From NCBI RefSeq assembly GCF_054482525.1, contig NZ_CM137006.1: 64,000 bases of DNA. One strand, 5' to 3'. A program made the position numbers and the translations under genes. The notes beneath the pieces were generated by a model. It was not told the origin of the DNA. It saw only the letters and a list, made by a program, of their open reading frames with translations, and did no database searches. Of the stretch, positions 1 to 61,338 are shown one piece after another (within the stretch, counting starts at the first letter, position 1; the number at the start of each line of letters is the position of its first letter).

Positions 1-1325
<1,325 letters not shown>

Positions 1326-1349
1326 TAAACTGTAGCAGGAAGGAACAGC

Positions 1350-4022
1350 ATGACAGATGTAACGATTAAAACGCTGGCCGCAGAGCGACAGACCTCCGTG
1401 GAACGCCTGGTACAGCAATTTGCTGATGCAGGTATCCGGAAGTCTGCTGACGACTCTGTGTCCGCACAAGAGAAACAGACTTTGATTGACCACCTGAATC
1501 AGAAAAATTCAGGCCCGGACAAATTGACGCTGCAACGTAAAACACGCAGCACCCTTAACATTCCTGGTACCGGTGGAAAAAGCAAATCGGTACAAATCGA
1601 AGTCCGCAAGAAACGCACCTTTGTGAAACGCGATCCGCAAGAGGCTGAACGCCTTGCTGCGGAAGAGCAAGCGCAGCGTGAAGCGGAAGAGCAAGCCCGT
1701 CGTGAGGCAGAAGAATCGGCTAAACGCGAGGCGCAACAAAAAGCTGAACGTGAGGCCGCAGAACAAGCTAAGCGTGAAGCTGCTGAACAAGCGAAACGTG
1801 AAGCTGCGGAAAAAGACAAAGTGAGCAATCAACAAGACGATATGACTAAAAACGCCCAGGCTGAAAAAGCCCGCCGTGAGCAGGAAGCTGCAGAGCTCAA
1901 GCGTAAAGCCGAAGAAGAAGCGCGTCGTAAACTCGAAGAAGAAGCACGTCGCGTTGCTGAAGAAGCACGTCGTATGGCGGAAGAAAACAAATGGACTGAT
2001 AACGCGGAACCGACTGAAGATTCCAGCGATTATCACGTCACTACTTCTCAACATGCTCGCCAGGCAGAAGACGAAAGCGATCGTGAAGTCGAAGGCGGCC
2101 GTGGCCGTGGTCGTAACGCGAAAGCTGCGCGTCCGAAGAAAGGCAACAAACACGCTGAATCAAAAGCTGATCGTGAAGAAGCACGCGCAGCAGTACGTGG
2201 CGGTAAGGGCGGAAAACGTAAAGGTTCTTCGCTGCAGCAAGGCTTCCAGAAGCCTGCTCAGGCCGTTAACCGTGACGTTGTGATCGGCGAAACCATCACC
2301 GTTGGCGAACTGGCGAACAAGATGGCGGTTAAAGGCTCTCAGGTCATCAAAGCGATGATGAAACTGGGCGCAATGGCAACCATCAACCAGGTTATCGATC
2401 AGGAAACCGCACAGCTGGTTGCTGAAGAGATGGGCCACAAAGTTATCCTGCGTCGTGAAAACGAGCTGGAAGAAGCGGTAATGAGCGACCGTGACACGGG
2501 TGCAGCGGCTGAACCGCGTGCGCCGGTTGTGACCATCATGGGTCACGTTGACCACGGTAAAACCTCTCTGCTGGACTACATTCGTTCAACGAAAGTGGCC
2601 TCTGGCGAAGCGGGCGGCATTACCCAGCACATTGGTGCATACCACGTTGAAACTGAAAACGGCATGATCACCTTCCTGGACACCCCGGGGCACGCCGCGT
2701 TTACTTCAATGCGTGCTCGTGGTGCGCAGGCAACGGACATCGTAGTCCTGGTTGTTGCTGCCGACGACGGCGTAATGCCGCAGACCATCGAAGCAATCCA
2801 GCACGCGAAAGCGGCGCAGGTTCCGGTGGTGGTTGCAGTGAACAAGATCGATAAACCAGAAGCCGATCCGGATCGCGTTAAGAACGAACTCTCCCAGTAC
2901 GGCATCCTGCCGGAAGAGTGGGGCGGTGAAAGCCAGTTCGTACATGTGTCTGCGAAAGCGGGTACTGGTATCGATGAGCTGCTGGACGCTATCCTGCTGC
3001 AGGCGGAAGTTCTGGAACTGAAAGCGGTACGTAAAGGTATGGCGAGCGGTGCGGTTATCGAATCCTTCCTCGATAAAGGTCGTGGTCCGGTTGCTACCGT
3101 TCTGGTACGTGAAGGTACTCTGCACAAGGGCGATATCGTTCTGTGTGGCTTCGAATACGGTCGTGTTCGTGCGATGCGTAACGAACTGGGTCAGGAAGTG
3201 CTGGAAGCGGGTCCGTCCATTCCGGTGGAAATCCTCGGCCTGTCCGGCGTTCCGGCTGCGGGTGATGAAGTTACCGTTGTACGTGACGAGAAGAAAGCGC
3301 GTGAAGTTGCACTCTATCGTCAGGGTAAATTCCGCGAAGTTAAACTGGCACGTCAGCAGAAATCTAAACTCGAGAACATGTTCGCCAATATGACCGAAGG
3401 CGAAGTTCACGAAGTGAACATCGTCCTGAAGGCAGACGTACAGGGTTCCGTGGAAGCTATCTCCGACTCCTTGCTGAAACTGTCTACTGACGAAGTTAAA
3501 GTGAAGATCATCGGTTCTGGCGTAGGTGGTATCACCGAAACCGACGCTACCCTGGCTGCGGCGTCCAACGCCATCCTGGTTGGCTTCAACGTACGTGCTG
3601 ATGCCTCTGCACGTAAAGTGATTGAAGCGGAAAGCCTGGATCTGCGTTACTACTCCGTCATCTATAACCTGATCGACGAAGTGAAAGCGGCAATGAGCGG
3701 TATGCTGTCTCCGGAACTGAAACAACAGATTATCGGTCTGGCGGAAGTTCGTGACGTATTCAAATCACCGAAATTTGGTGCCATCGCAGGTTGTATGGTT
3801 ACCGAAGGTGTGGTTAAACGTCACAACCCGATCCGCGTTCTGCGCGACAACGTGGTTATCTACGAAGGCGAGCTGGAGTCCCTGCGCCGCTTCAAAGATG
3901 ACGTTAACGAAGTCCGTAACGGTATGGAATGTGGTATCGGCGTTAAGAACTACAACGACGTCCGCACTGGCGATGTGATCGAAGTGTTCGAAATCATCGA
4001 AATCCAACGTACCATCGCTTAA
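1350..4022 (+). CDS. infB: Translation initiation factor IF-2
   Basis: 890-aa ORF; GTP-binding motifs ([17 protein letters not shown]); charged repetitive N-terminal region; position after nusA. Confidence 0.97.
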
Positions 4023-4035
4023 GGTTGTCTGGGTT

Positions 4036-4113
4036 GTAGGCCGGATAAGGCTTTTACGCCGTATCCGGCAGCCGTTGCCTGATGCGACGCTCGCGCGTCT
4101 TATCAGGCCTACA
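4036..4113. repeat. REP/BIME palindromic elements (two inverted REP units)
   Basis: gtaggccggataagg...gccgtatccggca and gcctgatgcgacgc...cttatcaggcctac palindromes in the infB-rbfA spacer. Confidence 0.8.
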
Positions 4114-4142
4114 CAGCCCTTTCCACCTGAGATTAATTTTAA

Positions 4143-4172
4143 AAGGGGCTATGGCCCCTTTTTTGTCAGGAG
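4143..4172 (+). terminator. GC hairpin plus T-run (attenuating terminator-like structure) just upstream of rbfA
   Basis: ggggctatggcccc followed by ttttttg; overlaps rbfA ribosome-binding region. Confidence 0.45.
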
Positions 4173-4180
4173 AATTTATT

Positions 4181-4582
4181 ATGGCGAAAGAATTTGGTCG
4201 CCCGCAGCGCGTAGCGCAGGAAATGCAAAAAGAGATCGCTCTCATCCTGCAGCGTGAAATTAAAGATCCTCGTCTGGGCATGATGACCACCGTTTCCGGT
4301 GTCGAAATGTCTCGCGACCTGGCGTATGCCAAAGTATATGTAACGTTCCTCAACGACAAAGATGAAGACGCGGTTAAAGCGGGCATCAAAGCGTTGCAGG
4401 AAGCTTCTGGTTTCATCCGCAGCCTGCTGGGGAAAGCGATGCGCCTGCGTATCGTGCCGGAACTGACCTTCTTCTACGACAACTCGCTGGTTGAAGGGAT
4501 GCGCATGTCAAACCTGGTGACCAGCGTGGTCAAACATGACGAAGAACGTCGTGTTAACCCGGACGACAGCAAGGAGGACTAA
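4181..4582 (+). CDS. rbfA: Ribosome-binding factor A (30S maturation)
   Basis: [20 protein letters not shown]... 133 aa; start chosen at ATG 4181 preceded by AGGAG rather than the longer track ORF from 4082. Confidence 0.93.
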
Positions 4583-5526
4583 TGAGTCGTCCTCGTCGTC
4601 GCGGTCGCGACATTAACGGCGTTTTGTTGCTGGATAAACCGCAGGGTATGTCCAGCAATGATGCGCTGCAAAAAGTGAAACGGATTTATAACGCCAACCG
4701 TGCCGGGCATACCGGTGCGCTGGACCCGCTGGCAACTGGCATGTTGCCAATTTGCCTCGGGGAAGCGACGAAGTTTTCCCAGTATCTGCTGGACTCCGAC
4801 AAACGTTATCGGGTGATTGCGCGTCTTGGACAGCGTACCGATACGTCTGACGCCGATGGACAAATCGTTGAAGAACGTCCGGTAACCTTTAGCGCAGAGC
4901 AACTGGCGGCGGCACTGGATACTTTCCGTGGCGATATCGAACAGATCCCATCGATGTATTCAGCACTGAAATACCAAGGCAAAAAACTGTACGAATATGC
5001 GCGTCAGGGCATTGAAGTACCGCGTGAAGCGCGCCCGATTACCGTTTATGAATTGCTGTTTATTCGCCACGAAGGCAATGAGCTGGAGCTGGAAATTCAC
5101 TGCTCAAAAGGCACTTATATCCGCACCATCATTGATGACCTGGGTGAAAAACTCGGTTGTGGCGCGCATGTTATTTACCTGCGTCGTCTGGCGGTAAGTA
5201 AATATCCGGTTGAACGGATGGTGACCCTGGAACATCTGCGTGAACTGGTTGAACAAGCCGAACAGCAGGATATTCCAGCCGCGGAGTTACTTGATCCATT
5301 ACTGATGCCAATGGACAGTCCAGCTTCGGACTACCCGGTGGTGAATCTTCCGTTAACGTCTTCTGTTTACTTCAAAAATGGTAACCCGGTTCGTACATCC
5401 GGTGCGCCGCTGGAAGGACTGGTTCGCGTTACAGAAGGTGAGAACGGCAAGTTTATCGGTATGGGCGAAATTGACGATGAAGGCCGCGTCGCGCCTCGTC
5501 GCCTGGTGGTTGAATACCCGGCGTAA
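4582..5526 (+). CDS. truB: tRNA pseudouridine(55) synthase
   Basis: 314-aa ORF, TruB family motifs ([12 protein letters not shown]); 1-nt overlap with rbfA stop. Confidence 0.96.
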
Positions 5527-5578
5527 TGTTAACCGTCTTGCGATAACAGGTCGCTACGAGTAGAATACTGCCGCTTAA

Positions 5579-5944
<366 letters not shown>

Positions 5945-5960
5945 TTCTTGCGAGTTTCAG

Positions 5961-5990
5961 AAAAGGGGGCCTGAGTGGCCCCTTTTTTCA
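5961..5990 (+). terminator. Rho-independent terminator after rpsO
   Basis: aaaagggggcctgagtggcccc followed by tttttt. Confidence 0.85.
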
Positions 5991-6190
5991 AGCTGACGGC
6001 AGCAATTCACTGGAAACTAATGTATTGTTGCTATGAATGATCTTCCGTTGCAGAGGTTCGCGCGGCTAATGAGAGGCTTTACCCACATTGGGCTGGGTTA
6101 GGGTTGTCATTAGTCGCGAGGATGCGCAGAAGATCGGGTATTAACACCAGTGCCGTAAGGTACTGTCTAAGAAAGAGAAAGGATATTACA

Positions 6191-8326
6191 TTGCTTAATC
6201 CGATCGTTCGTAAATTCCAGTACGGCCAACACACCGTGACTCTGGAAACCGGCATGATGGCTCGTCAGGCTACTGCCGCTGTTATGGTTAGCATGGATGA
6301 CACCGCGGTATTCGTTACCGTTGTTGGCCAGAAAAAAGCCAAACCAGGTCAGGACTTCTTCCCACTGACCGTTAACTATCAGGAGCGTACCTACGCTGCT
6401 GGTCGTATCCCGGGTAGCTTCTTCCGTCGTGAAGGCCGCCCAAGCGAAGGCGAAACCCTGATCGCGCGTCTGATTGACCGCCCAATTCGCCCGCTGTTCC
6501 CGGAAGGCTTCGTCAACGAAGTTCAGGTTATCGCCACCGTGGTTTCTGTTAACCCGCAAGTTAACCCGGATATCGTCGCGATGATTGGTGCTTCCGCAGC
6601 ACTGTCTCTGTCTGGTATTCCGTTCAATGGTCCGATTGGTGCTGCCCGCGTAGGTTACATCAATGACCAGTACGTACTGAACCCGACTCAGGACGAGCTG
6701 AAAGAGAGCAAACTGGATCTGGTTGTTGCCGGTACTGAAGCCGCTGTACTGATGGTTGAATCTGAAGCTGAACTGCTGAGCGAAGACCAGATGTTGGGCG
6801 CAGTAGTGTTCGGTCATGAACAACAGCAGGTTGTCATTCAGAACATCAATGAACTGGTGAAAGAAGCCGGTAAACCGCGTTGGGACTGGCAGCCGGAGCC
6901 GGTAAACGAAGCGCTGAACGCGCGCGTTGCTGCACTGGCTGAAGCTCGTCTGAGCGATGCTTACCGCATCACCGACAAACAAGAGCGTTATGCGCAGGTT
7001 GATGTCATCAAATCTGAAACCATCGCGACGCTGCTTGCTGAAGATGAAACCCTGGACGAAAACGAACTGGGTGAAATTCTGCACGCTATCGAGAAAAACG
7101 TTGTTCGTAGCCGCGTACTGGCAGGCGAACCGCGTATCGACGGTCGTGAAAAAGATATGATTCGTGGTCTGGATGTGCGTACTGGCGTGCTGCCGCGTAC
7201 TCACGGTTCTGCGCTGTTCACCCGTGGTGAAACTCAGGCGCTGGTTACCGCAACGCTGGGTACTGCACGTGACGCGCAAGTTCTTGATGAACTAATGGGC
7301 GAACGTACTGACACCTTCCTGTTCCACTACAACTTCCCTCCGTACTCAGTAGGCGAAACCGGCATGGTCGGTTCTCCGAAGCGTCGTGAAATTGGTCACG
7401 GTCGTCTGGCGAAGCGCGGTGTGCTGGCAGTCATGCCGGATATGGACAAATTCCCGTACACCGTACGTGTTGTGTCTGAAATCACTGAATCCAACGGTTC
7501 CTCTTCTATGGCTTCCGTGTGCGGCGCGTCTCTGGCGCTGATGGACGCAGGTGTGCCAATCAAAGCTGCTGTTGCGGGTATCGCAATGGGTCTGGTGAAA
7601 GAAGGCGACAACTACGTTGTACTGTCTGACATTTTGGGCGACGAAGATCACCTGGGCGATATGGACTTCAAAGTTGCGGGTTCCCGCGACGGTATCTCTG
7701 CATTGCAGATGGATATCAAAATTGAAGGTATCACCAAAGAGATCATGCAGGTTGCGCTGAACCAGGCTAAAGGTGCGCGTCTGCATATCCTGGGCGTAAT
7801 GGAACAGGCGATCAACGCGCCGCGCGGCGATATCTCTGAGTTCGCTCCGCGTATCCATACCATCAAGATCAACCCGGACAAGATCAAAGACGTTATCGGT
7901 AAAGGCGGTTCTGTTATCCGTGCTCTGACCGAAGAAACTGGCACCACCATCGAAATCGAAGATGACGGTACTGTGAAGATCGCAGCGACCGACGGCGAGA
8001 AAGCGAAACATGCTATTCGTCGTATCGAAGAGATCACTGCAGAAATCGAAGTGGGCCGCGTCTACAATGGTAAAGTGACCCGTATCGTTGACTTTGGCGC
8101 ATTTGTTGCCATCGGCGGCGGTAAAGAAGGTCTGGTACACATCTCTCAGATCGCTGACAAACGCGTAGAGAAAGTGACCGATTACCTGCAGATGGGTCAG
8201 GAAGTACCGGTGAAAGTTCTGGAAGTTGATCGCCAGGGCCGTATCCGTCTGAGCATTAAAGAAGCGACTGAGCAGTCTCAACCTGCTGCAGCACCGGAAG
8301 CTCCGGCTGCTGAACAGGGCGAGTAA
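6191..8326 (+). CDS. pnp: Polynucleotide phosphorylase (PNPase), UUG start
   Basis: 711 aa from TTG at 6191 ([15 protein letters not shown]...); RNase PH, KH and S1 domains; track ORF from 6104 is an upstream in-frame extension. Confidence 0.95.
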
Positions 8327-8335
8327 GGTTGCCAT

Positions 8336-8365
8336 TTGCCCTCCGCTGCGGCGGGGGGCTTTTAA
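8336..8365 (+). terminator. Rho-independent terminator after pnp
   Basis: gccctccgctgcggcggggggc hairpin followed by tttt. Confidence 0.7.
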
Positions 8366-8434
8366 CCGGGCAGGACGCCTTGTTAGCAACCGGGAACAGG
8401 ACGTTCATTCAACCGTGGTCTTCGGGAGTGGGAA

Positions 8435-9319
8435 ATGAAGCCTTTTTTGCGCTGGTGTTTCGTTGCGACAGCACTTACGCTTGCAGGATGCAGTAATACT
8501 TCCTGGCGTAAAAGTGAAGTCCTCGCGGTACCATTGCAACCGACTTTACAGCAGGAAGTGATTCTGGCACGTATGGAACAAATCCTTGCCAGTCGGGCTT
8601 TAACCGATGACGAACGCGCACAGCTTTTATATGAGCGCGGAGTGTTGTATGATAGTCTCGGTCTGAGGGCATTAGCGCGTAACGATTTTTCGCAAGCGCT
8701 GGCAATCCGACCGGATATGCCTGAAGTATTCAATTACTTAGGCATATATTTAACGCAGGCAGGCAATTTTGATGCTGCCTATGAAGCGTTTGATTCTGTA
8801 CTTGAGCTTGATCCAACTTACAACTACGCGCACTTGAATCGCGGGATCGCATTATATTACGGCGGTCGTGATAAGTTAGCGCAAGATGATCTGCTGGCGT
8901 TTTATCAAGACGATCCCAATGATCCTTTCCGTAGTCTGTGGCTTTATCTCGCCGAGCAGAAGCTCGATGAGAAGCAGGCTAAAGAAGTGTTGAAACAGCA
9001 CTTCGAAAAATCGGATAAGGAACAGTGGGGATGGAACATTGTCGAGTTCTACCTGGGCAACATTAGCGAACAAACGTTAATGGAAAGGCTCAAGGCGGAC
9101 GCAACGGATAACACCTCGCTCGCTGAGCATCTCAGTGAAACCAACTTCTATTTAGGTAAGTACTACCTAAGTCTGGGGGATTTGGACAGCGCCACGGCAC
9201 TGTTCAAACTGGCGGTTGCCAACAACGTTCATAACTTTGTTGAGCACCGATACGCATTGTTGGAATTATCGCTCCTGGGCCAGGACCAAGATGACCTGGC
9301 AGAATCGGACCAGCAATAG
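8435..9319 (+). CDS. nlpI: Lipoprotein NlpI (TPR repeats)
   Basis: 294 aa; lipobox LTLAGC in signal peptide; TPR-like repeats. Confidence 0.95.
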
Positions 9320-9425
9320 CTGACGTACACATCAGCCCGTAATCTTTTTTGATTGCCATCACCTTAACGGGTGAGGGCGTTGTTGTTCGTTAATACACCT
9401 ACTTTGAGCCGGTTCACACTTTTCA

Positions 9426-9506
9426 ATGAAAATTGCTGATCAATTTCATGATGAGTTATGTAGACTGGCCGCCATTAATTTTGAGGCACACGTACTACAT
9501 GGCTGA
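9426..9506 (+). CDS. yrbN: Small protein YrbN (26 aa)
   Basis: atg aaa att gct gat caa ttt... translates [26 protein letters not shown]; stop overlaps deaD start. Confidence 0.5.
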
Positions 9507-11400
9507 ATTCGAAACCACTTTTGCAGATCTGGGCCTGAAGGCTCCTATCCTTGAAGCCCTTAACGATCTGGGTTACGAAAAACCATCTCCAATTCAGGCA
9601 GAGTGTATTCCACATCTGCTGAATGGCCGCGACGTTCTGGGTATGGCCCAGACGGGGAGCGGAAAAACTGCAGCATTCTCTTTACCTCTGCTGCAGAATC
9701 TTGATCCTGAGCTGAAAGCACCACAGATTCTGGTGTTGGCACCGACCCGCGAACTGGCGGTACAGGTTGCTGAGGCAATGACGGATTTCTCTAAACACAT
9801 GCGCGGCGTAAACGTGGTTGCCCTGTACGGCGGCCAGCGTTATGACGTGCAATTACGCGCCCTGCGTCAGGGGCCGCAGATCGTTGTCGGTACTCCGGGC
9901 CGTCTGCTGGATCACCTGAAACGTGGCACTCTGGACCTTTCTAAACTGAGCGGTCTGGTTCTGGATGAAGCTGACGAAATGCTGCGCATGGGCTTCATCG
10001 AAGACGTTGAAACCATTATGGCGCAGATCCCGGAAGGTCATCAGACCGCTCTGTTCTCTGCAACCATGCCGGAAGCGATTCGTCGCATTACCCGCCGCTT
10101 TATGAAAGAGCCGCAGGAAGTGCGCATTCAGTCCAGCGTGACTACCCGTCCTGACATCAGCCAGAGCTACTGGACCGTCTGGGGTATGCGTAAAAACGAA
10201 GCACTGGTACGTTTCCTGGAAGCGGAAGATTTTGATGCGGCGATTATCTTCGTTCGTACCAAAAACGCGACTCTGGAAGTGGCAGAAGCTCTTGAGCGTA
10301 ACGGCTACAATAGCGCCGCGCTGAACGGTGACATGAACCAGGCGCTGCGTGAGCAGACACTGGAACGACTGAAAGATGGTCGTCTGGACATCCTGATTGC
10401 GACCGACGTTGCGGCCCGTGGCCTGGACGTTGAGCGTATCAGCCTGGTAGTTAACTACGATATCCCGATGGATTCTGAGTCTTACGTTCACCGTATCGGT
10501 CGTACCGGTCGTGCGGGCCGTGCTGGCCGTGCGCTGCTGTTCGTTGAGAACCGTGAGCGTCGTCTGCTGCGTAACATTGAACGCACCATGAAGCTGACCA
10601 TTCCGGAAGTTGAACTGCCGAACGCAGAACTGCTGGGCAAACGTCGTCTGGAAAAATTCGCCGCTAAAGTACAGCAGCAGCTGGAAAGCAGCGATCTGGA
10701 TCAATACCGTGCACTGCTGAGCAAAATTCAGCCGACTGCCGAAGGCGAAGAGCTGGATCTCGAAACTCTGGCCGCCGCACTGCTGAAAATGGCACAGGGT
10801 GAACGTACTCTGATTGTTCCGCCAGATGCGCCGATGCGTCCGAAACGTGAATTCCGTGACCGTGATGACCGTGGTCCGCGCGATCGTAACGACCGTGGCC
10901 CGCGTGGTGACCGTGAAGATCGTCCGCGTCGTGAACGTCGTGATGTTGGCGATATGCAGCTGTACCGCATTGAAGTGGGCCGCGATGATGGTGTTGAAGT
11001 TCGTCATATCGTTGGCGCGATTGCTAACGAAGGCGACATCAGCAGCCGTTACATCGGTAACATCAAGCTGTTTGCTTCTCACTCCACCATCGAACTGCCG
11101 AAAGGTATGCCGGGTGAAGTGCTGCAACACTTTACGCGTACTCGCATTCTCAACAAGCCGATGAACATGCAGTTACTGGGCGATGCACAGCCGCATACTG
11201 GCGGTGAGCGTCGTGGCGGTGGTCGTGGTTTCGGTGGCGAACGTCGTGAAGGTGGTCGTGAAGGCGGTCGTAACTTCAGCGGTGAACGCCGTGAAGGTGG
11301 TCGTGGTGATGGTCGTCGTTTTAGCGGCGAACGTCGTGAAGGCCGCGCTCCGCGTCGTGATGACTCTACCGGTCGTCGTCGTTTCGGTGGTGATGCGTAA
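9499..11400 (+). CDS. deaD: ATP-dependent DEAD-box RNA helicase DeaD/CsdA
   Basis: [13 protein letters not shown]...; motifs [25 protein letters not shown]; Arg/Gly-rich repetitive C-terminus; start at ATG 9499. Confidence 0.95.
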
Positions 11401-11425
11401 TCATCGCTGAACAGCGAACACAATC

Positions 11426-11502
11426 TGTAAAATAATATATACAGCCCCGATTTGTACCATCGGGGCTTTTTTTCTGTCTTTTGTACTCGTGTACTGGTAC
11501 AG
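11426..11502 (+). promoter_or_regulatory. mtr promoter region with TyrR-box-like and TrpR-operator-like palindromes
   Basis: tgtaaaataatatataca (TGTAAA-N6-TATACA) and tgtactcgtgtactggtacag upstream of mtr. Confidence 0.55.
11444..11473 (+). terminator. Rho-independent terminator after deaD
   Basis: gccccgatttgtaccatcggggc followed by tttttttc. Confidence 0.75.
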
Positions 11503-11553
11503 TGCAATGCATAACAACGCAGTCGCACTATTTTTCACTGGAGAGAAGCCCTC

Positions 11554-12798
11554 ATGGCAACACTAACCACCACCCAAACGTCACCGTCGCTGCTTGGCGG
11601 CGTGGTGATTATCGGCGGCACCATTATTGGCGCAGGGATGTTTTCTCTGCCTGTGGTCATGTCCGGGGCGTGGTTCTTCTGGTCAATGGCGGCGCTGATC
11701 TTTACCTGGTTCTGTATGCTGCATTCCGGCTTGATGATTCTGGAAGCTAACCTGAATTATCGAATCGGTTCTAGTTTTGACACCATCACCAAAGATTTGC
11801 TGGGCAAAGGCTGGAATGTAGTCAACGGCATTTCCATTGCCTTTGTGCTCTATATCCTGACTTACGCCTATATTTCTGCCAGCGGTTCGATTCTGCATCA
11901 CACCTTCGCGGAGATGTCGCTAAACGTCCCTGCACGGGCAGCTGGATTTGGTTTTGCACTGCTGGTAGCGTTCGTGGTGTGGTTGAGTACGAAAGCTGTC
12001 AGCCGGATGACAGCAATTGTGCTGGGGGCGAAAGTCATTACTTTCTTCCTCACCTTCGGCAGCCTGCTGGGGCATGTACAGCCTGCGACATTGTTCAACG
12101 TCGCCGAAAGCAATGCGTCTTATGCGCCGTATCTGCTGATGACACTGCCATTCTGTCTGGCATCGTTTGGTTATCACGGTAACGTGCCGAGCCTGATGAA
12201 GTATTACGGCAAAGATCCGAAAACCATCGTGAAATGCCTGGTGTACGGTACGCTGATGGCGCTGGCGCTGTATACCATCTGGTTGCTGGCGACGATGGGC
12301 AACATCCCTCGTCCGGAGTTTATCGGCATCGCCGAGAAGGGCGGTAACATTGATGTGCTGGTACAGGCATTAAGCGGCGTGCTGAACAGCCGTAGCCTGG
12401 ATCTGCTGCTGGTCGTGTTCTCAAACTTTGCGGTAGCAAGTTCGTTCCTTGGCGTAACGCTGGGTTTGTTTGACTATCTGGCAGATCTGTTTGGTTTCGA
12501 TGACTCGGCTATGGGCCGCTTGAAAACAGCATTGTTGACCTTTGCACCGCCTGTTGTGGGTGGTCTGCTGTTCCCGAATGGATTCCTGTACGCCATTGGC
12601 TATGCTGGCTTAGCAGCTACCATCTGGGCGGCAATTGTACCGGCGCTGTTGGCCCGCGCATCGCGTAAACGCTTTGGCAGCCCGAAATTCCGCGTCTGGG
12701 GCGGTAAGCCGATGATTGCGCTGATTCTGGTGTTTGGCGTCGGCAACGCACTGGTGCATATTTTATCGAGCTTTAATTTGCTGCCGGTGTATCAGTAA
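11554..12798 (+). CDS. mtr: Tryptophan-specific permease Mtr
   Basis: 414-aa polytopic membrane protein, aromatic amino acid permease family. Confidence 0.95.
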
Positions 12799-12858
12799 TT
12801 GAACGAGCCGGATGAGCAGTTTTCATCCGGCAATAATTCACAAGTACACGAGATGGTA

Positions 12859-13389
12859 TCAAATAAACCCCTGTTTATTATAAAGTTCTTCAGCGAGAGT
12901 TTCCCCGTGCTCATCGAAAAAAGCATCGGCGATAGTTAAATTTTCTGCCTTAGGATTTGCCGTTATTTTGCTACCATTGGCATCAAATTCGAGCGCGATA
13001 GCGGTCTCCGAACCCCACCAGTAATAATAAATTAGCGCAAAATTATTTTCCCCTGGCGTAATAAACTTCTCGATTCTCCGCACACAGGCCATGAGTGGCA
13101 TGAAGATTTCATAGCTCTCTGAGAGAAATATGTGATCCATCGTGACTATCTGTGTTTCTTTATTAAAGTTGATATGTTCGGCATAAATATTCTTTTCACT
13201 TTCACCAGAATTACAAGCTGCAAGATTGTTAAGCATTTTTGCAGGATCGCCGTACAACCGCTGCTTCTCGATAAACCATGGTAACCAGTCGTCATAGTCT
13301 TTGATATTTGTTGCTGGTGAATGGAAAAACTTCTCGAGGTTACTCTCGGTAATATGTGCATGAAGAAAAAAGGAAGCCGGTTCACTCAT
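12859..13389 (-). CDS. Hypothetical protein, 176 aa, no recognisable motif (orphan ORF in AT-rich islet)
   Basis: Clean ATG-start ORF with plausible RBS; AT-rich codon usage unlike flanking genes; no signal peptide; not part of the K-12 gene order as I know it. Confidence 0.6.
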   Translation of the reverse strand: MSEPASFFLHAHITESNLEKFFHSPATNIKDYDDWLPWFIEKQRLYGDPAKMLNNLAACNSGESEKNIYAEHINFNKETQIVTMDHIFLSESYEIFMPLMACVRRIEKFITPGENNFALIYYYWWGSETAIALEFDANGSKITANPKAENLTIADAFFDEHGETLAEELYNKQGFI

Positions 13390-13547
13390 GATGATTTTCT
13401 CTGGTAATAAGTCGATTTGTTCATTTCTCTGTTTGGTGATGATAAAACGATGACTATTTTATAAAAGTACAGAACTGGACCTTTCATCTATTTCATATCA
13501 TAAGAAAATATATACAAGAACTGGCTCAGAATAAGCGGAATACGAAA

Positions 13548-14267
13548 ATGGGGCGTAAAGGACTACTTGCTATTGTATTGTTGAGCCTGTTTATCGCCAT
13601 GATTTTTCAATTTTTCTGGCCTGCCCCACACGATGAGCACGTTTTCCTGCTGGTTGAAAAACCTGTCGTACCGTCTTTAAAAATCATTCACGCCGGCGAC
13701 CAGTTATTTATCCGCATTCTGAAAGCGGAAGATAAGCTGGAACTGTGGGCAAGCACCAACAACAAGCCTTACGAACTCTATAAAACCTGGACTATATGCG
13801 CGTGGTCTGGTGGCTTAGGGCCAAAGCACAAACAGGGGGATGGTAAAAGCCCGGAAGGTTTTTATGCCACCAACAAAGGGTTACTTAACCCAAACAGTCG
13901 CTATCATCTGGCATTTAATATTGGTTACCCGAATGCTTACGATCGGGCAAACGGCTACACCGGTGATTTCATTATGGTTCACGGAAACTGCCTTTCGGCG
14001 GGCTGCTATGCCATGACCGATGCTGGTATTGAAGAGATTTATCAACTGGTGGCGCAGGCGCTGAATAGCGGGCAGAAGAGCGTGCCGGTGCATATCTTCC
14101 CGTTTGCGATGAACGAAGAAAATATGCGCCAGGCGCAGGTATGGCCGGAATATAATTTCTGGCGTATGTTGAAGCCCGGCTATGATTACTTTGAAAAAAA
14201 TCGCCGATTGCCAACCATCACCATTGAAAACCGGCGTTATAAAATCAGCCCAACAACTCATCCTTAG
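13548..14267 (+). CDS. YafK/DpaA-like L,D-transpeptidase-fold protein (YkuD domain) with N-terminal signal/anchor
   Basis: 239 aa; hydrophobic N-terminus; YkuD catalytic motif HGNCLSAGC; long-range similarity to E. coli YafK (…SGGLGPK…[10 protein letters not shown]…[11 protein letters not shown]…GCYAM…PGYDYFE…). Confidence 0.75.
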
Positions 14268-15252
14268 CATCCATCGCCAGTTCAAACGAATGCAGGCGCG
14301 CCTGGTGATCGAAAATCTGCCCGTTAACCATAATCTCATCGGCGTCGGTTTCGCGCAGGATCGACTGCAAGCCGTGACGCACTTTCGCTTTATCGCCCAC
14401 CAGCGACATACTCAGCGCCTGCTGCACGCCATACTGCTCGGACGGTGACCAGAACTGATCCATATTTTGAATCGGCGGCGGTAGTTGCCCGGTTTCGCCA
14501 CGGCGTAGTTTCACAAAGGCTTGCTGCATTGAGGTAAAGAGAAATTCAGCGTCGCGGTTGCTGTCGGCGGCGATAATATTGATGCACACCATCGCATACG
14601 GTTTTTCCAGCCGAGCCGACGGTTTGAAGTTACTGCGATAAAGATGCAGCGCCTGGAACAACATATCCGGCGCGAAGTGTGAGGCAAACGCAAACGGCAG
14701 ACCAAGCTGCGCCGCCAGTTGCGCACTGTAAAGGCTGGAGCCTAACAACCATACGGGGATTTTTTCGCCATAGCCTGGTACCGGGCGCACATGTGGATTG
14801 GGATCGCGGGCGTCAAACCAGTCCACCAGCTCCGCGACATCGCGGGGGAAATTATCAATATCGCCGCTCATATGACGACGTAGAGCCATCATGGTTCGCT
14901 GGTCACTACCCGGAGCACGACCCAGCCCCAAATCGATTCGCCCCGGATAGAGCGTATTAAGCGTGCCGAACTGTTCGGCGATCACCAATGGTGAGTGATT
15001 AGGCAACATCACGCCGCCAGACCCCAGATGCAGCGTAGTGGTATTCGCCGCCAGATAGCCAATCAAAACTGATGTTGCAGCACTGGCAATGCCAGTCATA
15101 TTGTGGTGTTCTGCCAGCCAGTAGCGATGATAGCCGCGCTTTTCAGCCAGACGGGCGAGATCGAGAGAGTGGGAGAATGCTTCTCGCGCTGAAGAACCTT
15201 CGGGAATGGGGGCCAGATCGAGTAGCGAAAACGGAATGGTTTTATCAGTCAT
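14245..15252 (-). CDS. yhbW: Luciferase-like monooxygenase YhbW
   Basis: 335-aa [22 protein letters not shown]...; bacterial luciferase-like family. Confidence 0.93.
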
Positions 15253-20489: not shown

Positions 20490-20561
20490 TTATTCCCAAG
20501 AATTGATAGTGAGCGTAATATTCACGCGCTCAATTATCATAACTTATTCCTGGGGAATGCT

Positions 20562-21602
20562 ATGACTGGTCAGTCTTCATCTCAGGCGGCAACGCCCATT
20601 CAGTGGTGGAAACCCGCGCTTTTCTTTCTCGTTGTCATTGCTGGTCTCTGGTATGTGAAATGGCAACCTTACTACGGCAAAGCGTTTACTGCTGCCGAAA
20701 CCCACAGTATCGGTAAATCTATCCTTGCGCAGGCGGATGCTAATCCGTGGCAGGCGGCGTTGGATTACGCGATGATCTATTTCCTCGCGGTATGGAAAGC
20801 GGCGGTGCTGGGGGTGATCCTCGGTTCGTTGATTCAGGTGCTGATCCCGCGTGACTGGTTGCTGCGTACGCTTGGGCAATCGCGCTTTCGCGGCACGCTG
20901 CTGGGAACGCTGTTTTCGCTGCCGGGCATGATGTGTACCTGCTGTGCGGCTCCGGTCGCGGCGGGAATGCGTCGCCAACAGGTATCGATGGGCGGGGCGC
21001 TGGCATTCTGGATGGGGAATCCGTTGTTAAACCCGGCGACGCTGGTGTTTATGGGGTTTGTCCTCGGTTGGCAATTTGCCGCGATTCGTCTGGTTGCAGG
21101 CCTTGCGATGGTGTTGCTGATTGCGACGCTGGTGCAAAAATGGGTGCGTGAAACACCGCAAACGCAGGCTCCGGTCGAAATTGACATACCGGAAGCGCAG
21201 GGCGGATTTTTTAGCCGCTGGGGCAGGGCGCTATGGACGCTTTTCTGGAGTACGATCCCGGTTTACATCCTTGCAGTACTGGTGTTGGGTGCCGCTCGCG
21301 TCTGGTTATTCCCCCATGCCGATGGTGCTGTCGATAACAGCCTGATGTGGGTGGTGGCGATGGCGGTAGCGGGATGCTTGTTTGTCATTCCCACGGCGGC
21401 AGAAATTCCAATTGTACAAACGATGATGCTGGCAGGCATGGGAACCGCTCCGGCGCTGGCATTGTTGATGACGCTCCCGGCGGTGAGTTTGCCGTCACTG
21501 ATTATGTTGCGTAAAGCGTTCCCGGCGAAAGCCTTATGGCTGACGGGGGCGATGGTGGCAGTGTCTGGTGTGATTGTCGGCGGGCTGGCGCTGTTGGTTT
21601 GA
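20562..21602 (+). CDS. yraQ: Predicted permease YraQ
   Basis: 346-aa polytopic membrane protein. Confidence 0.9.
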   Translation: MTGQSSSQAATPIQWWKPALFFLVVIAGLWYVKWQPYYGKAFTAAETHSIGKSILAQADANPWQAALDYAMIYFLAVWKAAVLGVILGSLIQVLIPRDWLLRTLGQSRFRGTLLGTLFSLPGMMCTCCAAPVAAGMRRQQVSMGGALAFWMGNPLLNPATLVFMGFVLGWQFAAIRLVAGLAMVLLIATLVQKWVRETPQTQAPVEIDIPEAQGGFFSRWGRALWTLFWSTIPVYILAVLVLGAARVWLFPHADGAVDNSLMWVVAMAVAGCLFVIPTAAEIPIVQTMMLAGMGTAPALALLMTLPAVSLPSLIMLRKAFPAKALWLTGAMVAVSGVIVGGLALLV

Positions 21603-29310: not shown

Positions 29311-30183
<873 letters not shown>

Positions 30184-38617: not shown

Positions 38618-38765
38618 GATTCACTGTCCTTTTACAGCCTGTTTTCTGCTCAAATTATAAGCTTGAACTAAGGTAATGCAAATGCATTATTAATGGACGT
38701 GGGGGCTTTAAACAATAAAAACATGGCACTAAGGCCATGTTTTGCGAGGGACGTTCCAAAAGAAA

Positions 38766-40337
38766 TCAGGTCACCGGTGCCGGGTTAAACACCGCCAGCT
38801 GGTTATGCAGTCCCCATTGATCTGAGAAGGTTTTCTTCTTCCCGCTGGCGACGTCGAGAATAAAGTGGAACAACTTCCAGCCCACCTCTTCAATAGTTTC
38901 TTCGCCGGTAGCGATGGTGCCCGCATTAATATCCATTAAATCAAACCAGCGGTTCGCCAGCTCGGTGCGGGTCGCCATTTTAATGACGGGTACCGCCATC
39001 AGGCCGTATGGCGTACCACGACCGGTCGTAAACACTTGCACGGTGATACCCGAAGCCACCTGTTGCGTGCCACAGACAAAATCGCTGGCTGGCGTCGCGG
39101 CGTAAATTAATCCGCGTTTAGTCGGGCGTTGACCGGGCGACAGCACTTCAACAATTGCACTTTTACCCGATTTAGCAATGGAGCCGAGCGCTTTCTCCAC
39201 CACGTTTGCCAGACCGCCTTTCTTGTTGCCCGGCGAAGGGTTGGCGCTGCGGTCGGTTTTTCCCATATTGAGATAGTTATCGTACCACTCCATCTCCTCC
39301 AGCAGCCGTTTGCCGACCTCTTCGTTCACTGCGCGTGGTGTCAGCAGATGGATCGCGTCACGCACTTCCGTGACTTCTGAAAACATCACCGTTGCGCCGC
39401 AGCGCACCAGTAGATCAGACGCATAGCCAACCGCCGGGTTTGCCGTTACGCCAGAAAACGCATCGCTACCGCCGCACTGCATGCCGACAACCAGTTCTGA
39501 AGCCGGACAGGTTTCTCGCTGCCGTTGATTCAGTTTGTGCAAATGGCGTTCGGCGACCTGCAAAATATCCTAGACCATGGACTGAAAACCGACATGCTTT
39601 TCATCCTGCAAACTGACAATGCTGGCGCTTTCTACTGGAATAGCTTGCACATCATCCGTTCCAGTCAGCAGGCGCTCAGGCTGCAACTTTTCACAACCCA
39701 GACCAATCACCATTACTTCGCCGCCAAAGTTAGGGTTCAGCGAAATATTGTGGATGGTACGAATAGGCACAACTGCCGCCGGTGCGTTAATCGCCACGCC
39801 ACAACCGTACAAATGATTCAGCCCCACCACGCCATCGACGTTCGGGTATTTCGGTAGCAGATCGCGTTCAATGATTTTTACTACATAGTCCACCACGCCT
39901 GCCACACAGTGGACGCTGGTGGTGATGCCGAGCAGGTTTTTGGTGCCCACGCTGCCATCGGCATTGCGATAGCCCTCAAAGGTGTAACCTTCAAGCGGCG
40001 GTAAGGGTTCCGGGACTTTGGTTGCAAGTGGCAGCGTGTGTAACGGCGGCGCTTCCGGTAGTACAACCATTGATTCGTCGATCCAGCTTCCGCGTGGGAT
40101 TGCGCGCACGGCGTAACCAATCACTTCGCCATAACGAATAATTTCACCATTAGCCGGAATGTCCAGCAATGCGACTTTATGCCCCTGGGGAATATGTTCA
40201 ATTAATTCCAGCCCATCCGGAAAACGCGTTCCTGCTTTCAGGCCATTATCATTAACAATAATTGCCACATTATCTGTGTCGTGAACTTTTATATAAAACG
40301 CAGTTGGCGTTTCTTGTCTGATTTCGATGTTGGCCAT
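38766..40337 (-). pseudogene. garD: Galactarate dehydratase GarD interrupted by an in-frame amber codon
   Basis: Two collinear ORFs in the same frame; minus-strand reading …[16 protein letters not shown]… with TAG at 39570..39572; no frameshift. Confidence 0.8.
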
Positions 40338-40711: not shown

Positions 40712-42046
40712 ATGATTCTGGACACCGTTGACGTAAAAAAGAAAGGCGTGCATACCCGCTATTTAATATTACTGATTATTTTTATTGTTACCGCCGTTAA
40801 CTACGCCGATCGTGCAACGCTGTCTATTGCTGGTACCGAAGTGGCAAAAGAGTTGCAGTTAAGTGCGGTTTCGATGGGTTACATCTTCTCTGCTTTTGGC
40901 TGGGCCTACTTGCTGATGCAAATCCCCGGCGGCTGGCTGCTTGATAAGTTTGGTTCGAAAAAAGTTTACACCTACAGCCTCTTTTTCTGGTCGCTATTCA
41001 CCTTCCTGCAAGGCTTTGTTGATATGTTCCCGCTGGCCTGGGCAGGGATCTCCATGTTCTTTATGCGCTTTATGCTGGGGTTCTCGGAAGCGCCATCATT
41101 CCCGGCGAACGCCCGTATTGTCGCCGCCTGGTTCCCAACGAAAGAACGTGGTACTGCCTCCGCCATCTTTAACTCGGCGCAATATTTCTCGCTGGCGCTC
41201 TTTTCGCCGCTGCTTGGCTGGCTGACTTTCGCCTGGGGCTGGGAGCACGTCTTTACCGTTATGGGGGTAATTGGTTTTGTGCTGACGGCGCTGTGGATCA
41301 AGTTGATTCATAACCCGACAGATCACCCACGTATGTCTGCGGAAGAGCTGAAGTTTATCTCAGAAAATGGCGCGGTGGTCGATATGGACCACAAAAAGCC
41401 GGGCAGTGTGGCAGCAAGCGGTCCCAAACTGCATTACATCAAGCAATTGCTCTCTAACCGCATGATGCTGGGCGTATTTTTCGGACAATATTTTATCAAC
41501 ACCATCACCTGGTTCTTCCTCACCTGGTTCCCAATTTATCTGGTGCAGGAAAAAGGCATGTCGATTCTGAAAGTGGGTCTGGTCGCCTCGATTCCGGCAC
41601 TGTGTGGCTTTGCGGGCGGCGTGCTGGGAGGTGTCTTCTCGGATTATCTGATCAAACGCGGTTTGTCCCTGACCCTGGCACGTAAGCTACCGATTGTGCT
41701 GGGAATGTTGCTGGCTTCCACCATCATCTTATGTAACTACACCAACAACACCACGCTGGTGGTCATGCTGATGGCGCTGGCTTTCTTTGGCAAAGGATTT
41801 GGTGCGCTGGGCTGGCCAGTGATTTCTGACACCGCGCCGAAAGAGATTGTTGGTCTCTGCGGCGGCGTCTTTAACGTCTTTGGCAATGTTGCCTCCATTG
41901 TCACTCCACTGGTGATTGGCTATCTGGTAAGTGAACTGCACTCCTTCAATGCAGCACTGGTTTTCGTGGGATGTTCAGCGCTGATGGCGATGGTCTGCTA
42001 CCTCTTCGTAGTTGGCGACATTAAACGTATGGAATTGCAGAAATAA
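40712..42046 (+). CDS. garP: Galactarate/glucarate MFS transporter GarP
   Basis: 444-aa 12-TM MFS ORF. Confidence 0.93.
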   Translation: MILDTVDVKKKGVHTRYLILLIIFIVTAVNYADRATLSIAGTEVAKELQLSAVSMGYIFSAFGWAYLLMQIPGGWLLDKFGSKKVYTYSLFFWSLFTFLQGFVDMFPLAWAGISMFFMRFMLGFSEAPSFPANARIVAAWFPTKERGTASAIFNSAQYFSLALFSPLLGWLTFAWGWEHVFTVMGVIGFVLTALWIKLIHNPTDHPRMSAEELKFISENGAVVDMDHKKPGSVAASGPKLHYIKQLLSNRMMLGVFFGQYFINTITWFFLTWFPIYLVQEKGMSILKVGLVASIPALCGFAGGVLGGVFSDYLIKRGLSLTLARKLPIVLGMLLASTIILCNYTNNTTLVVMLMALAFFGKGFGALGWPVISDTAPKEIVGLCGGVFNVFGNVASIVTPLVIGYLVSELHSFNAALVFVGCSALMAMVCYLFVVGDIKRMELQK

Positions 42047-42061
42047 GCAAAGGTATAAGCG

Positions 42062-42832
42062 ATGAATAACGATGTTTTCCCGAATAAATTCAAAGCCGCA
42101 CTGGCTGCGAAACAGGTACAAATTGGTTGCTGGTCAGCACTCTCTAACCCGATTAGCACTGAAGTTCTTGGTTTGGCTGGGTTTGACTGGCTGGTGCTGG
42201 ATGGCGAACATGCGCCAAACGATATCTCCACGTTTATTCCGCAGTTAATGGCCCTGAAAGGCAGCGCCAGCGCGCCAGTAGTGCGAGTGCCGACCAACGA
42301 GCCGGTAATTATTAAGCGTCTTCTGGATATCGGTTTCTATAACTTCCTGATTCCTTTTGTAGAAACAAAAGAGGAAGCAGAGCAGGCGGTGGCATCAACC
42401 CGTTACCCACCGGAAGGCATTCGCGGCGTCTCCGTTTCTCACCGCGCCAATATGTTTGGCACCGTGGCGGATTATTTCGCTCAGTCGAACAAGAACATCA
42501 CCATTCTGGTCCAGATAGAAAGTCAGCAGGGCGTAGATAACGTCGATGCCATTGCCGCTACCGAAGGTGTAGACGGTATCTTCGTCGGCCCCAGCGATCT
42601 GGCTGCGGCATTAGGCCATCTCGGCAATGCCTCGCACCCGGATGTACAAAAAGCAATTCAGCATATTTTTAACCGTGCCAGTGCGCACGGCAAACCCAGC
42701 GGTATCCTCGCACCGGTCGAAGCCGATGCGCGTCGTTATCTGGAATGGGGTGCGACGTTTGTGGCTGTCGGTAGCGATCTCGGCGTCTTCCGCTCTGCCA
42801 CTCAGAAACTGGCTGATACCTTTAAAAAATAA
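42062..42832 (+). CDS. garL: 5-keto-4-deoxy-D-glucarate aldolase GarL
   Basis: 256-aa ORF, HpcH/HpaI aldolase family. Confidence 0.93.
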
Positions 42833-42867
42833 CCACCACCGCAACAAGAGAGATGATTGATATGACT

Positions 42868-43752
42868 ATGAAAGTTGGTTTTATTGGCCTGGGGATTATG
42901 GGTAAACCAATGAGTAAAAACCTTCTGAAAGCAGGTTACTCGCTGGTGGTTGCTGACCGTAACCCAGAAGCTATTGCTGACGTGATTGCTGCAGGTGCAG
43001 AAACAGCCTCTACGGCTAAAGCGATCGCTGAACAGTGCGACGTCATCATAACCATGCTGCCAAACTCCCCTCATGTGAAAGAGGTGGCGCTGGGTGAGAA
43101 TGGCATTATTGAAGGCGCGAAGCCAGGTACGGTATTGATCGATATGAGTTCTATCGCACCGCTGGCAAGCCGTGAAATCAGCGAAGCGCTGAAAGCGAAA
43201 GGCATTGATATGCTGGATGCTCCGGTGAGCGGCGGTGAACCGAAAGCTATCGACGGTACGCTGTCAGTGATGGTGGGTGGCGACAAGGCTATTTTCGACA
43301 AATACTATGATTTGATGAAAGCGATGGCGGGTTCCGTGGTGCATACCGGGGAAATTGGTGCAGGTAACGTTACCAAACTGGCGAATCAGGTCATTGTGGC
43401 GCTGAATATTGCCGCGATGTCAGAAGCGTTAACGCTGGCAACCAAAGCGGGCGTTAACCCGGATCTGGTGTATCAGGCAATTCGCGGTGGACTGGCGGGC
43501 AGTACCGTGCTGGATGCCAAAGCGCCGATGGTGATGGACCGCAACTTCAAGCCAGGCTTCCGTATTGATCTGCATATTAAGGATCTGGCGAATGCACTGG
43601 ATACTTCCCACGGCGTCGGCGCGCAACTGCCGCTCACAGCTGCGGTTATGGAGATGATGCAGGCACTGCGAGCAGATGGTTTAGGAACGGCGGATCATAG
43701 CGCTCTGGCGTGCTACTACGAAAAACTGGCGAAAGTCGAAGTTACTCGTTAA
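42868..43752 (+). CDS. garR: Tartronate semialdehyde (2-hydroxy-3-oxopropionate) reductase GarR
   Basis: MKVGFIGLGIMGKPM… NAD-binding GxGxxG; internal ATG of track ORF. Confidence 0.92.
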   Translation: MKVGFIGLGIMGKPMSKNLLKAGYSLVVADRNPEAIADVIAAGAETASTAKAIAEQCDVIITMLPNSPHVKEVALGENGIIEGAKPGTVLIDMSSIAPLASREISEALKAKGIDMLDAPVSGGEPKAIDGTLSVMVGGDKAIFDKYYDLMKAMAGSVVHTGEIGAGNVTKLANQVIVALNIAAMSEALTLATKAGVNPDLVYQAIRGGLAGSTVLDAKAPMVMDRNFKPGFRIDLHIKDLANALDTSHGVGAQLPLTAAVMEMMQALRADGLGTADHSALACYYEKLAKVEVTR

Positions 43753-43848
43753 TGACGTCGTGCCCGGATGGCGTATTGCAATCCGGGCCTGGAATCCAGG
43801 CCGAATAAGAGAAACGCCCTCCGGCGTCATGTGGTAACAGGCATAGGT

Positions 43849-44994
43849 ATGAAAATCGTAATCGCCCCAGACTCTTATAAAGAAAGTTTATCTGCCAGCG
43901 AGGTTGCGCAGGCGATAGAAAAAGGATTTCGGGAAATTTTTCCTGATGCACAGTACGTTTCTGTTCCGGTTGCCGATGGTGGCGAAGGAACGGTGGAAGC
44001 GATGATTGCAGCTACCCAGGGTTCTGAACGTCACGCCTGGGTTACAGGGCCGCTGGGCGAGAAAGTGAATGCCAGTTGGGGGATCTCCGGCGATGGCAAA
44101 ACCGCGTTTATTGAAATGGCGGCGGCCAGTGGACTGGAACTGGTACCTGCGGAAAAACGTGATCCACTCGTGACCACTTCACGCGGCACAGGCGAGTTAA
44201 TCCTACAGGCGCTGGAGAGCGGCGCGACAAACATTATTATCGGCATTGGCGGCAGCGCCACAAATGATGGCGGCGCAGGCATGGTACAGGCGCTGGGGGC
44301 GAAATTATGCGACGCCAACGGCAATGAAATTGGTTTTGGCGGTGGTAGCCTTAATACTCTGAATGATATTGATATTTCCGGCCTCGATCCGCGCTTAAAA
44401 GATTGCGCCATTCGTGTCGCTTGTGATGTCACCAATCCGCTGGTGGGCGATAACGGCGCATCGCGCATCTTTGGCCCACAAAAGGGAGCCAGTGAAGCGA
44501 TGATTGTCGAGCTGGACAATAACCTCTCTCACTATGCCGATGTCATTAAAAAAGCGCTGCATGTTGATGTGAAAGATGTCCCCGGCGCAGGAGCTGCGGG
44601 CGGTATGGGCGCGGCGCTGATGGCGTTTCTTGGTGCGGAACTGAAAAGTGGTATTGAAATCGTCACGACGGCGCTGAATCTGGAGGAACATATTCACGAT
44701 TGTACGCTGGTGATCACCGGTGAAGGGCGTATTGACAGCCAGAGTATTCACGGCAAGGTTCCGATTGGCGTTGCAAACATGGCAAAAAAGTACCATAAAC
44801 CGGTGATTGGCATTGCGGGTAGCCTGACCAATGATGTTGGCGTTGTACATCAGCATGGCATTGATGCGGTCTTCAGCGTATTGACCAGCATTGGTACGTT
44901 GGACGAAGCATTCCGCGGGGCTTATGACAATATTTACCGTGCTTCACGTAATATCGCCGCGACACTGGCGATTGGAATGCGCAACGCGGGGTGA
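43849..44994 (+). CDS. garK: Glycerate 2-kinase GarK
   Basis: MKIVIAPDSYKESLSASEVAQAIEKGF… 381 aa from internal ATG. Confidence 0.92.
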   Translation: MKIVIAPDSYKESLSASEVAQAIEKGFREIFPDAQYVSVPVADGGEGTVEAMIAATQGSERHAWVTGPLGEKVNASWGISGDGKTAFIEMAAASGLELVPAEKRDPLVTTSRGTGELILQALESGATNIIIGIGGSATNDGGAGMVQALGAKLCDANGNEIGFGGGSLNTLNDIDISGLDPRLKDCAIRVACDVTNPLVGDNGASRIFGPQKGASEAMIVELDNNLSHYADVIKKALHVDVKDVPGAGAAGGMGAALMAFLGAELKSGIEIVTTALNLEEHIHDCTLVITGEGRIDSQSIHGKVPIGVANMAKKYHKPVIGIAGSLTNDVGVVHQHGIDAVFSVLTSIGTLDEAFRGAYDNIYRASRNIAATLAIGMRNAG

Positions 44995-45026: not shown

Positions 45027-45403
<377 letters not shown>

Positions 45404-59880: not shown

Positions 59881-60635
<755 letters not shown>

Positions 60636-60739
60636 ATCAGCATACTTGTCCTTAGCCTTCTGCAGTGACAGCTGGTAGTACAGCGTGCTTCTGGCCAGCC
60701 CTGCAGCCTTTAACAGGTCAGACTGGCAGTGTCCGCACC

Positions 60740-61261
60740 TCAGGCTCCGGATGACTTTCGTTTTTTCTCCAGCTCCTGGCGCTTTTTTTCCAGGAGATGC
60801 TCCTGCATGGCTTTCAGATATGCATTTTCTGCGCGAAGATAACGCAGCTCATTCTTCATCTCTTCCGGCGTCATGTTTGCCTCGTTTTCATGGGTATCAT
60901 CAGAACGGGTCATGCTTTTCTCCTTCCTGCGCCTGATAAAGGCCTCATTACCAGATTTGCGGTAGCCTTTTATCCAGTTTTTAACCGTGTTGTGGCTGGG
61001 AATGTTAAACCGGGCAGCTACCCGGGGTAGAGACTCAGAATGCCCGAGAGCATAAAGAACCACGCAAAGTTTATCTTCAGGAGAATAGCTACGCTTGTGT
61101 CTGCAATCCAGTGCCCGAGGACCGTGAAGAAGAAAAAGATTAATCCAGTGTGAGAGGCTGGTGTGAGAAAGTTGAAAGAGTTTTGCCGTAGAAATGATGC
61201 CTGCATGACCAGCCAGGTAGTGATTTACAGCGGCAAGTTTTACTTCAAATGAATGTTTCAT
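60740..61261 (-). CDS. insJ: IS3-family transposase OrfA (HTH), IS150 InsJ-like
   Basis: MKHSFEVKLAAVNHYLAGHAGIISTAKLFQLSHTSLSHWINLF… 173 aa. Confidence 0.88.
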   Translation of the reverse strand: MKHSFEVKLAAVNHYLAGHAGIISTAKLFQLSHTSLSHWINLFLLHGPRALDCRHKRSYSPEDKLCVVLYALGHSESLPRVAARFNIPSHNTVKNWIKGYRKSGNEAFIRRRKEKSMTRSDDTHENEANMTPEEMKNELRYLRAENAYLKAMQEHLLEKKRQELEKKRKSSGA

Positions 61262-61338
61262 AAACTGCACCTTCAGATGTCAGATTATGTCCAACATTTG
61301 GGGTGCAGTTCAGTTTACGCCGCATCCGGCACCTGTCT

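Follow-up and report, generated by a model that had tools for sequence, protein, structure and literature searches.

The stretch of DNA analysed here, which we refer to as the window, is 64 kb in length. On its minus strand, the 1572 nt from 38766 to 40337 match the annotated garD gene, encoding galactarate dehydratase, of 5,399 of 5,426 complete E. coli genomes. The gene order around this locus is canonical (agaR, yhaV-prlF, garD, the divergent garP-garL-garR-garK operon and rnpB), and the position of garD between prlF-yhaV and divergent garPLRK is orthologous to that in the genomes of PCN033, SCU-102, 19KM1776, A10 and AST215, with the same synteny. The garP-garL-garR-garK operon occupies 40712..44994 on the plus strand (40712-42046, 42062-42832, 42862-43752 and 43849-44994, respectively). 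Its four genes showed zero base differences from those of the three closest genomes, in which the pathway is intact, so that the suggestion in an initial annotation that garPLRK had been spared was borne out. Just past the garD stop codon, also on the minus strand, there is a hairpin resembling an intrinsic terminator (38718..38743), with a 10-bp stem and a T run, and this is followed by a promoter-like site for prlF. Because of this arrangement garD is a single-gene unit, and no polarity on prlF-yhaV would therefore be expected.

The garD reading frame is interrupted by an amber codon, TAG, at codon 256 (39570..39572, minus strand; T at 39572, A at 39571 and G at 39570). The minus strand from 39610 to 39551 reads tgcaggatgaaaagcatgtcggttttcagtccatggtcTAGgatattttgcaggtcgccg, and the codons around the stop are ...cag tcc atg gtc TAG gat att ttg cag gtc gcc... 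On the N-terminal side there is an open reading frame of 255 amino acids, starting with ATG (MANIEIRQ...), at 39573..40337 (39570..40337 including the stop). Downstream lies a remnant in the same frame, at 38766..39563, of 265 amino acids if it is taken to start at the TTG codon for Leu259; this hypothetical reinitiation codon (39561..39563, minus strand) is 6 nt past the stop and is preceded by a weak Shine-Dalgarno (SD)-like AGGA. Between the two open reading frames there is just TAG-GAT-ATT, confirming the earlier observation that they share a frame and are parted by a single TAG. A chance pattern of open reading frames was ruled out, since both match the NCBIfam equivalog TIGR03248 (at profile positions 2-239 and 243-507) and lie in the canonical locus context.

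The three nearest complete genomes, all near-identical to the window, were those of PCN033 (a porcine ExPEC), SCU-102 (from a human rectal swab, USA) and 19KM1776 (from a dog, Switzerland). When the window was compared with them base by base (over positions 14100-63900 and 1-14300), it differed from all three at only two positions in ~64 kb, i.e., 29692 and 39572. There were no private indels in the 64-kb window relative to the three genomes, and no indels of any kind relative to PCN033 or 19KM1776. At position 39572 the plus strand carries C in the relatives, giving the coding triplet GAG (Glu), and A in the window, giving TAG. An alignment over all 1572 nt with the intact garD of PCN033 had as its sole difference a G>T change at nt 766, which converts codon 256 from GAG to TAG. 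With one base change and no indel, the lesion is a point nonsense mutation and not a frameshift, as had been supposed. Outside codon 256 there were no additional stops, frameshifts or substitutions compared with the intact allele. The orthologue is thus intact in the closest relatives, the stop arises from a single substitution and there is no further decay, which is the picture given by a recent nonsense pseudogene.

The other private substitution, at 29692, is a synonymous change (GCT>GCG) in codon 160 of kbaY (29311-30171, minus strand). The window carries the derived state, as A is found at this position in two more distant genomes as well, and the substitution provides a gauge of the density of private SNPs, which is 2 per 64 kb, i.e., ~3e-5 per base or some 150 in a whole genome. 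Of the possible substitutions in garD, 3.3% are nonsense changes, and at this density each genome would be expected to hold ~4 nonsense SNPs if there were no purifying selection, so that one nonsense hit in garD is unremarkable. That the window differs so little from three complete genomes, with two private substitutions and not one private indel in ~64 kb, indicates both that the assembly is clean and that the event is recent. The two substitutions are transversions, A>C in one case and C>A in the other (plus strand), and with n = 2 no firm statement on a spectrum of mutator activity or oxidative damage can be drawn from them.

A few other features of the window and its relatives are recorded here for completeness. 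Between cyuA and yhaL there is an IS3-family IS1397 transposase with a programmed frameshift (59913-61261), which is common to the three closest genomes; beside it, a GTT at 61313-61315 is present in the window, PCN033 and 19KM1776 and absent from SCU-102. In an L,D-transpeptidase family gene (window ~13548-14267), PCN033 differs at 13983 and 14020. The annotation of PCN033 lists its copy as a pseudogene interrupted by an internal stop, whereas the gene is intact in SCU-102 and 19KM1776, to both of which the window is identical; the near-isogenic PCN033 therefore carries a private nonsense lesion of its own in the same 64 kb. In the more distant E. coli AST215, the annotation likewise gives tdcR (20514-20732 of its compared stretch) as a pseudogene containing an internal stop, which is a further sporadic single-gene nonsense lesion in this chromosomal neighbourhood. 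Matches at the Rfam gathering level were found for naRNA4 (4039-4109, plus strand), the S15 leader (5617-5731, plus strand), the SraG sRNA (5961-6132, minus strand) and RNase P RNA (rnpB; 45027-45403, plus strand), all in the expected K-12-like positions and with nothing unusual about them.

The intact GarD of the relatives (WP_001273756.1), a member of the UxaA/GarD dehydratase family, contains three Pfam domains, i.e., SAF (residues 22-92), GD_AH_second (122-270) and GD_AH_C (279-520). It scored 939.9 bits against TIGR03248, for which the cut-off is 730.85, and it matches over its full length the protein in PDB 6u7l, which is full-length GarD. In the window, neither of the two open reading frames reached this cut-off, the N-terminal one scoring 390.6 bits and the C-terminal one 526.9 bits. 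The amber codon falls inside GD_AH_second and not in a linker, ~15 residues short of the end of the domain, and it removes the whole of GD_AH_C. The predicted N-terminal fragment of ~255 residues, which is indeed present in the list of open reading frames, thus comprises SAF and most of GD_AH_second without GD_AH_C, while the 265-residue remnant comprises the last ~12 residues of the second domain and a complete GD_AH_C. The three domains are therefore no longer carried by one polypeptide: compared with intact E. coli GarD, whose DNA is the same except for one base and lies in the same context, the window copy is cut at codon 256, with its C-terminal domain detached from the N-terminal domains. 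By descent the locus is the garD gene, yet as read from its codons it encodes no complete GarD. The metal-binding site of GarD is reportedly in the C-terminal domain. Because none of that domain is left in the 255-residue product, the latter should be catalytically dead.

The distribution of the TAG allele was examined using 30-nt probes in which the variant base was central, so that each 28-nt megablast seed has to include that base. These T- and G-centred 30-mers replaced a 61-nt probe, which was dropped because wild-type genomes gave the same result as TAG carriers that had a second SNP. The T-centred probe, specific for TAG, found none of the 5,426 complete E. coli genomes, whereas the G-centred probe, specific for GAG and serving as a positive control, found 5,352 at ≥99% identity. 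A comparison of this codon with that of other E. coli had been proposed as a check in the initial annotation. An exact TAG 39-mer also had no matches in JGI metagenome contigs or in GTDB species-representative genomes.

Looking up the truncated products themselves proved to be less straightforward. An exact look-up of the 255-residue product returned ~35 blocks of short contigs (Logan and ENA), but these were rejected as independent TAG carriers, being a selection artefact. In all ten of the matches listed (10 of ~35 blocks) no more than 2 bases separated the end of the gene from that of the contig, and in the four listed contigs that ran 1-2 bases further these bases were G or GA, i.e., the wild-type Glu codon. 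Such a look-up favours contigs that happen to end at the codon in question, and product identity can thus mislead a search for other genomes with a given nonsense allele. The 265-residue downstream frame was found in 12 contigs; among the 10 that were listed, six were scaffolds with N gaps and four carried other lesions, and none had TAG at codon 256. The apparent split garD genes in one NCBI draft and five ENA metagenome scaffolds were runs of 10 or 100 N rather than mutations, and some had duplicated flanks around the gap. As a practical caution, apparent cases of split garD in public metagenome scaffolds were here mostly artefacts of N gaps or contig ends.

The other lesions were Q231* (CAA>TAA) in Logan SRR13993158, E236* (GAA>TAA) in two ENA metagenome assemblies (ERZ10620896 and ERZ19664719) and a +1 T frameshift at garD nt 709 in Logan ERR14205467. 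As read from the assemblies, these appear to be natural null alleles of garD that arose independently in other backgrounds of E. coli. They resemble the allele in the window in being single-event lesions upstream of codon 259 that yield the same 265-residue frame, with the rest of the gar cluster present. They differ from it in position and type of mutation and in garD background (16-23 nt differences), and none of them has TAG256. A search of the literature for garD nonsense alleles, or for a link between garD and a mucate-negative phenotype in E. coli, gave no report specific to this species. In Salmonella, garD pseudogenes are fixed in lineages that include S. Typhimurium clade 3 and S. Paratyphi A lineages A-E (Lys132fs) (PMC4810482; PMC10171690), and mucate use is a classical variable typing trait, with mucate-negative serovars (table in PMC7285187). 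The same gene has there been lost through point lesions, with the same predicted galactarate- or mucate-negative phenotype. However, the Salmonella pseudogenes are lineage-wide and form part of a broader genome degradation, whereas the lesion described here is private to one strain, and no other broken genes were seen in the neighbouring 64 kb of the window.

We consider the best explanation, with a probability of about 0.8, to be a genuine, recent and strain-private loss-of-function mutation, i.e., G>T at garD nt 766 (Glu256>amber), by which garD has become a pseudogene. The change would have arisen in an E. coli of the lineage of PCN033, SCU-102 and 19KM1776. Translation would then end at codon 256, giving a product with SAF and most of the second domain, and the cell would be unable to dehydrate galactarate (mucate) to 5-keto-4-deoxy-glucarate. 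GarD and GudD each supply this intermediate to GarL, GarR and GarK (PMC11775122). Because the transporter, GarL, GarR and GarK are all kept and GudD is encoded elsewhere, use of glucarate and glycerate should persist, and the strain is probably galactarate (mucate)-negative but glucarate- and glycerate-positive. The domain content of the fragment is what points to the loss of enzyme activity and, with it, to this growth phenotype. Natural readthrough of UAG at a low level, or a suppressor tRNA encoded elsewhere, could nevertheless leave some full-length enzyme.

The alternative that survives best is an error of sequencing or consensus calling, in which case the strain would really have GAG at codon 256 and an intact garD. 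This would account for an allele that, among the collections searched, is confined to the window, and also for a lesion consisting of a single substitution. We nevertheless regard it as unlikely. The assembly is otherwise very clean, since against three independent complete genomes its 64 kb show no indels and a single private substitution besides this one, and the site is outside any homopolymer and does not overlap a GATC (Dam) or CCWGG (Dcm) methylation motif; for these reasons a real mutation is favoured over an error. In addition, strains as close as these are expected to differ by real private SNPs at ~3e-5 per base, and substitution-error rates in polished assemblies are typically lower than this figure.

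A second alternative accepts the mutation as real, but supposes that an amber-suppressor tRNA encoded elsewhere, or natural readthrough of UAG, provides enough full-length GarD. In its favour, some E. coli are known to carry amber suppressors, and UAG allows a low level of leakiness. Natural readthrough of this codon is, however, typically well under 1-2%, and a tRNA scan found no tRNA genes in the 64-kb window. The nearest relatives carry GAG, so that there is also no sign of a lineage adapted to reading TAG256. Taken together, these points make suppression quite improbable.

Less probable again, in our estimation, is reinitiation, in which ribosomes would stop at UAG256 and restart at UUG259, the two pieces (residues 1-255 and 259-523) then forming an active split enzyme. 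Reinitiation at the downstream TTG had been raised in the initial annotation. The codon is indeed present in frame, 6 nt past the stop and with AGGA directly upstream, and a restart there would limit the loss to three residues. In lacI and T4 rIIB, translation is known to restart after early nonsense codons, and the window likewise has a start-type codon a few bases past the premature stop. In contrast with those systems, the SD sequence of TTG259 is weak and badly spaced, and both its use and complementation between the fragments are hypothetical. The pairing predicted for this sequence, across a spacer of 3 nt, comes to -4.0 kcal/mol; 27% of positions in garD do as well, which places it at background level, compared with -6.4 at the genuine garD start. 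The G>T change itself weakened the pairing, from -5.9 to -4.0 kcal/mol, and TTG is a poor start codon. Thus, of the earlier suggestion, the presence of an in-frame TTG stands, while the accompanying SD match is no better than background and was lowered by the mutation.

The position of the break also argues against a functional split enzyme. It lies within GD_AH_second (122-270), so that the two pieces would have to reassemble across an intra-domain break. A single-sequence AlphaFold model of GarD was too poor to use (mean pLDDT 33.4), and the fact that this low-confidence model puts the break in a helix (residues 251-273, pLDDT ~41) may be taken as a hint at most. We saw no natural GarD that is split at codon 256, the listed contigs with a 265-residue frame being independent lesions or N-gap artefacts. 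With an intra-domain break, a background-level SD sequence combined with a TTG start, and a split that is not conserved, the locus does not resemble a natural two-gene dehydratase of the UxaA/GarD type. If a two-piece GarD did work, it would represent a natural split dehydratase of the UxaA/GarD family made in one mutational step. Whether by reinitiation at UUG259 or by a suppressor tRNA encoded elsewhere, there seems to be little prospect that the amber codon is tolerated and that the strain still uses galactarate.

Finally, the idea that TAG256 is a conserved, functional site of readthrough or programmed recoding can be excluded by the complete lack of conservation of the stop, which occurs in 0 of the 5,426 complete genomes against GAG in 5,352, with GAG also present in the three near-identical relatives.

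A genuine nonsense mutation in garD, which we continue to prefer, matters little beyond the annotation of the strain: the allele is newly found and would be a strain-private null allele of a well-known gene, and is otherwise ordinary. The proper annotation of the locus would be a garD pseudogene with an internal stop, and not two genes. Use of galactarate has been tied to fitness in the gut after antibiotics and during inflammation (PMC11775122 and works cited there). As a natural garD null, the strain could be compared with the near-isogenic SCU-102, PCN033 and 19KM1776.
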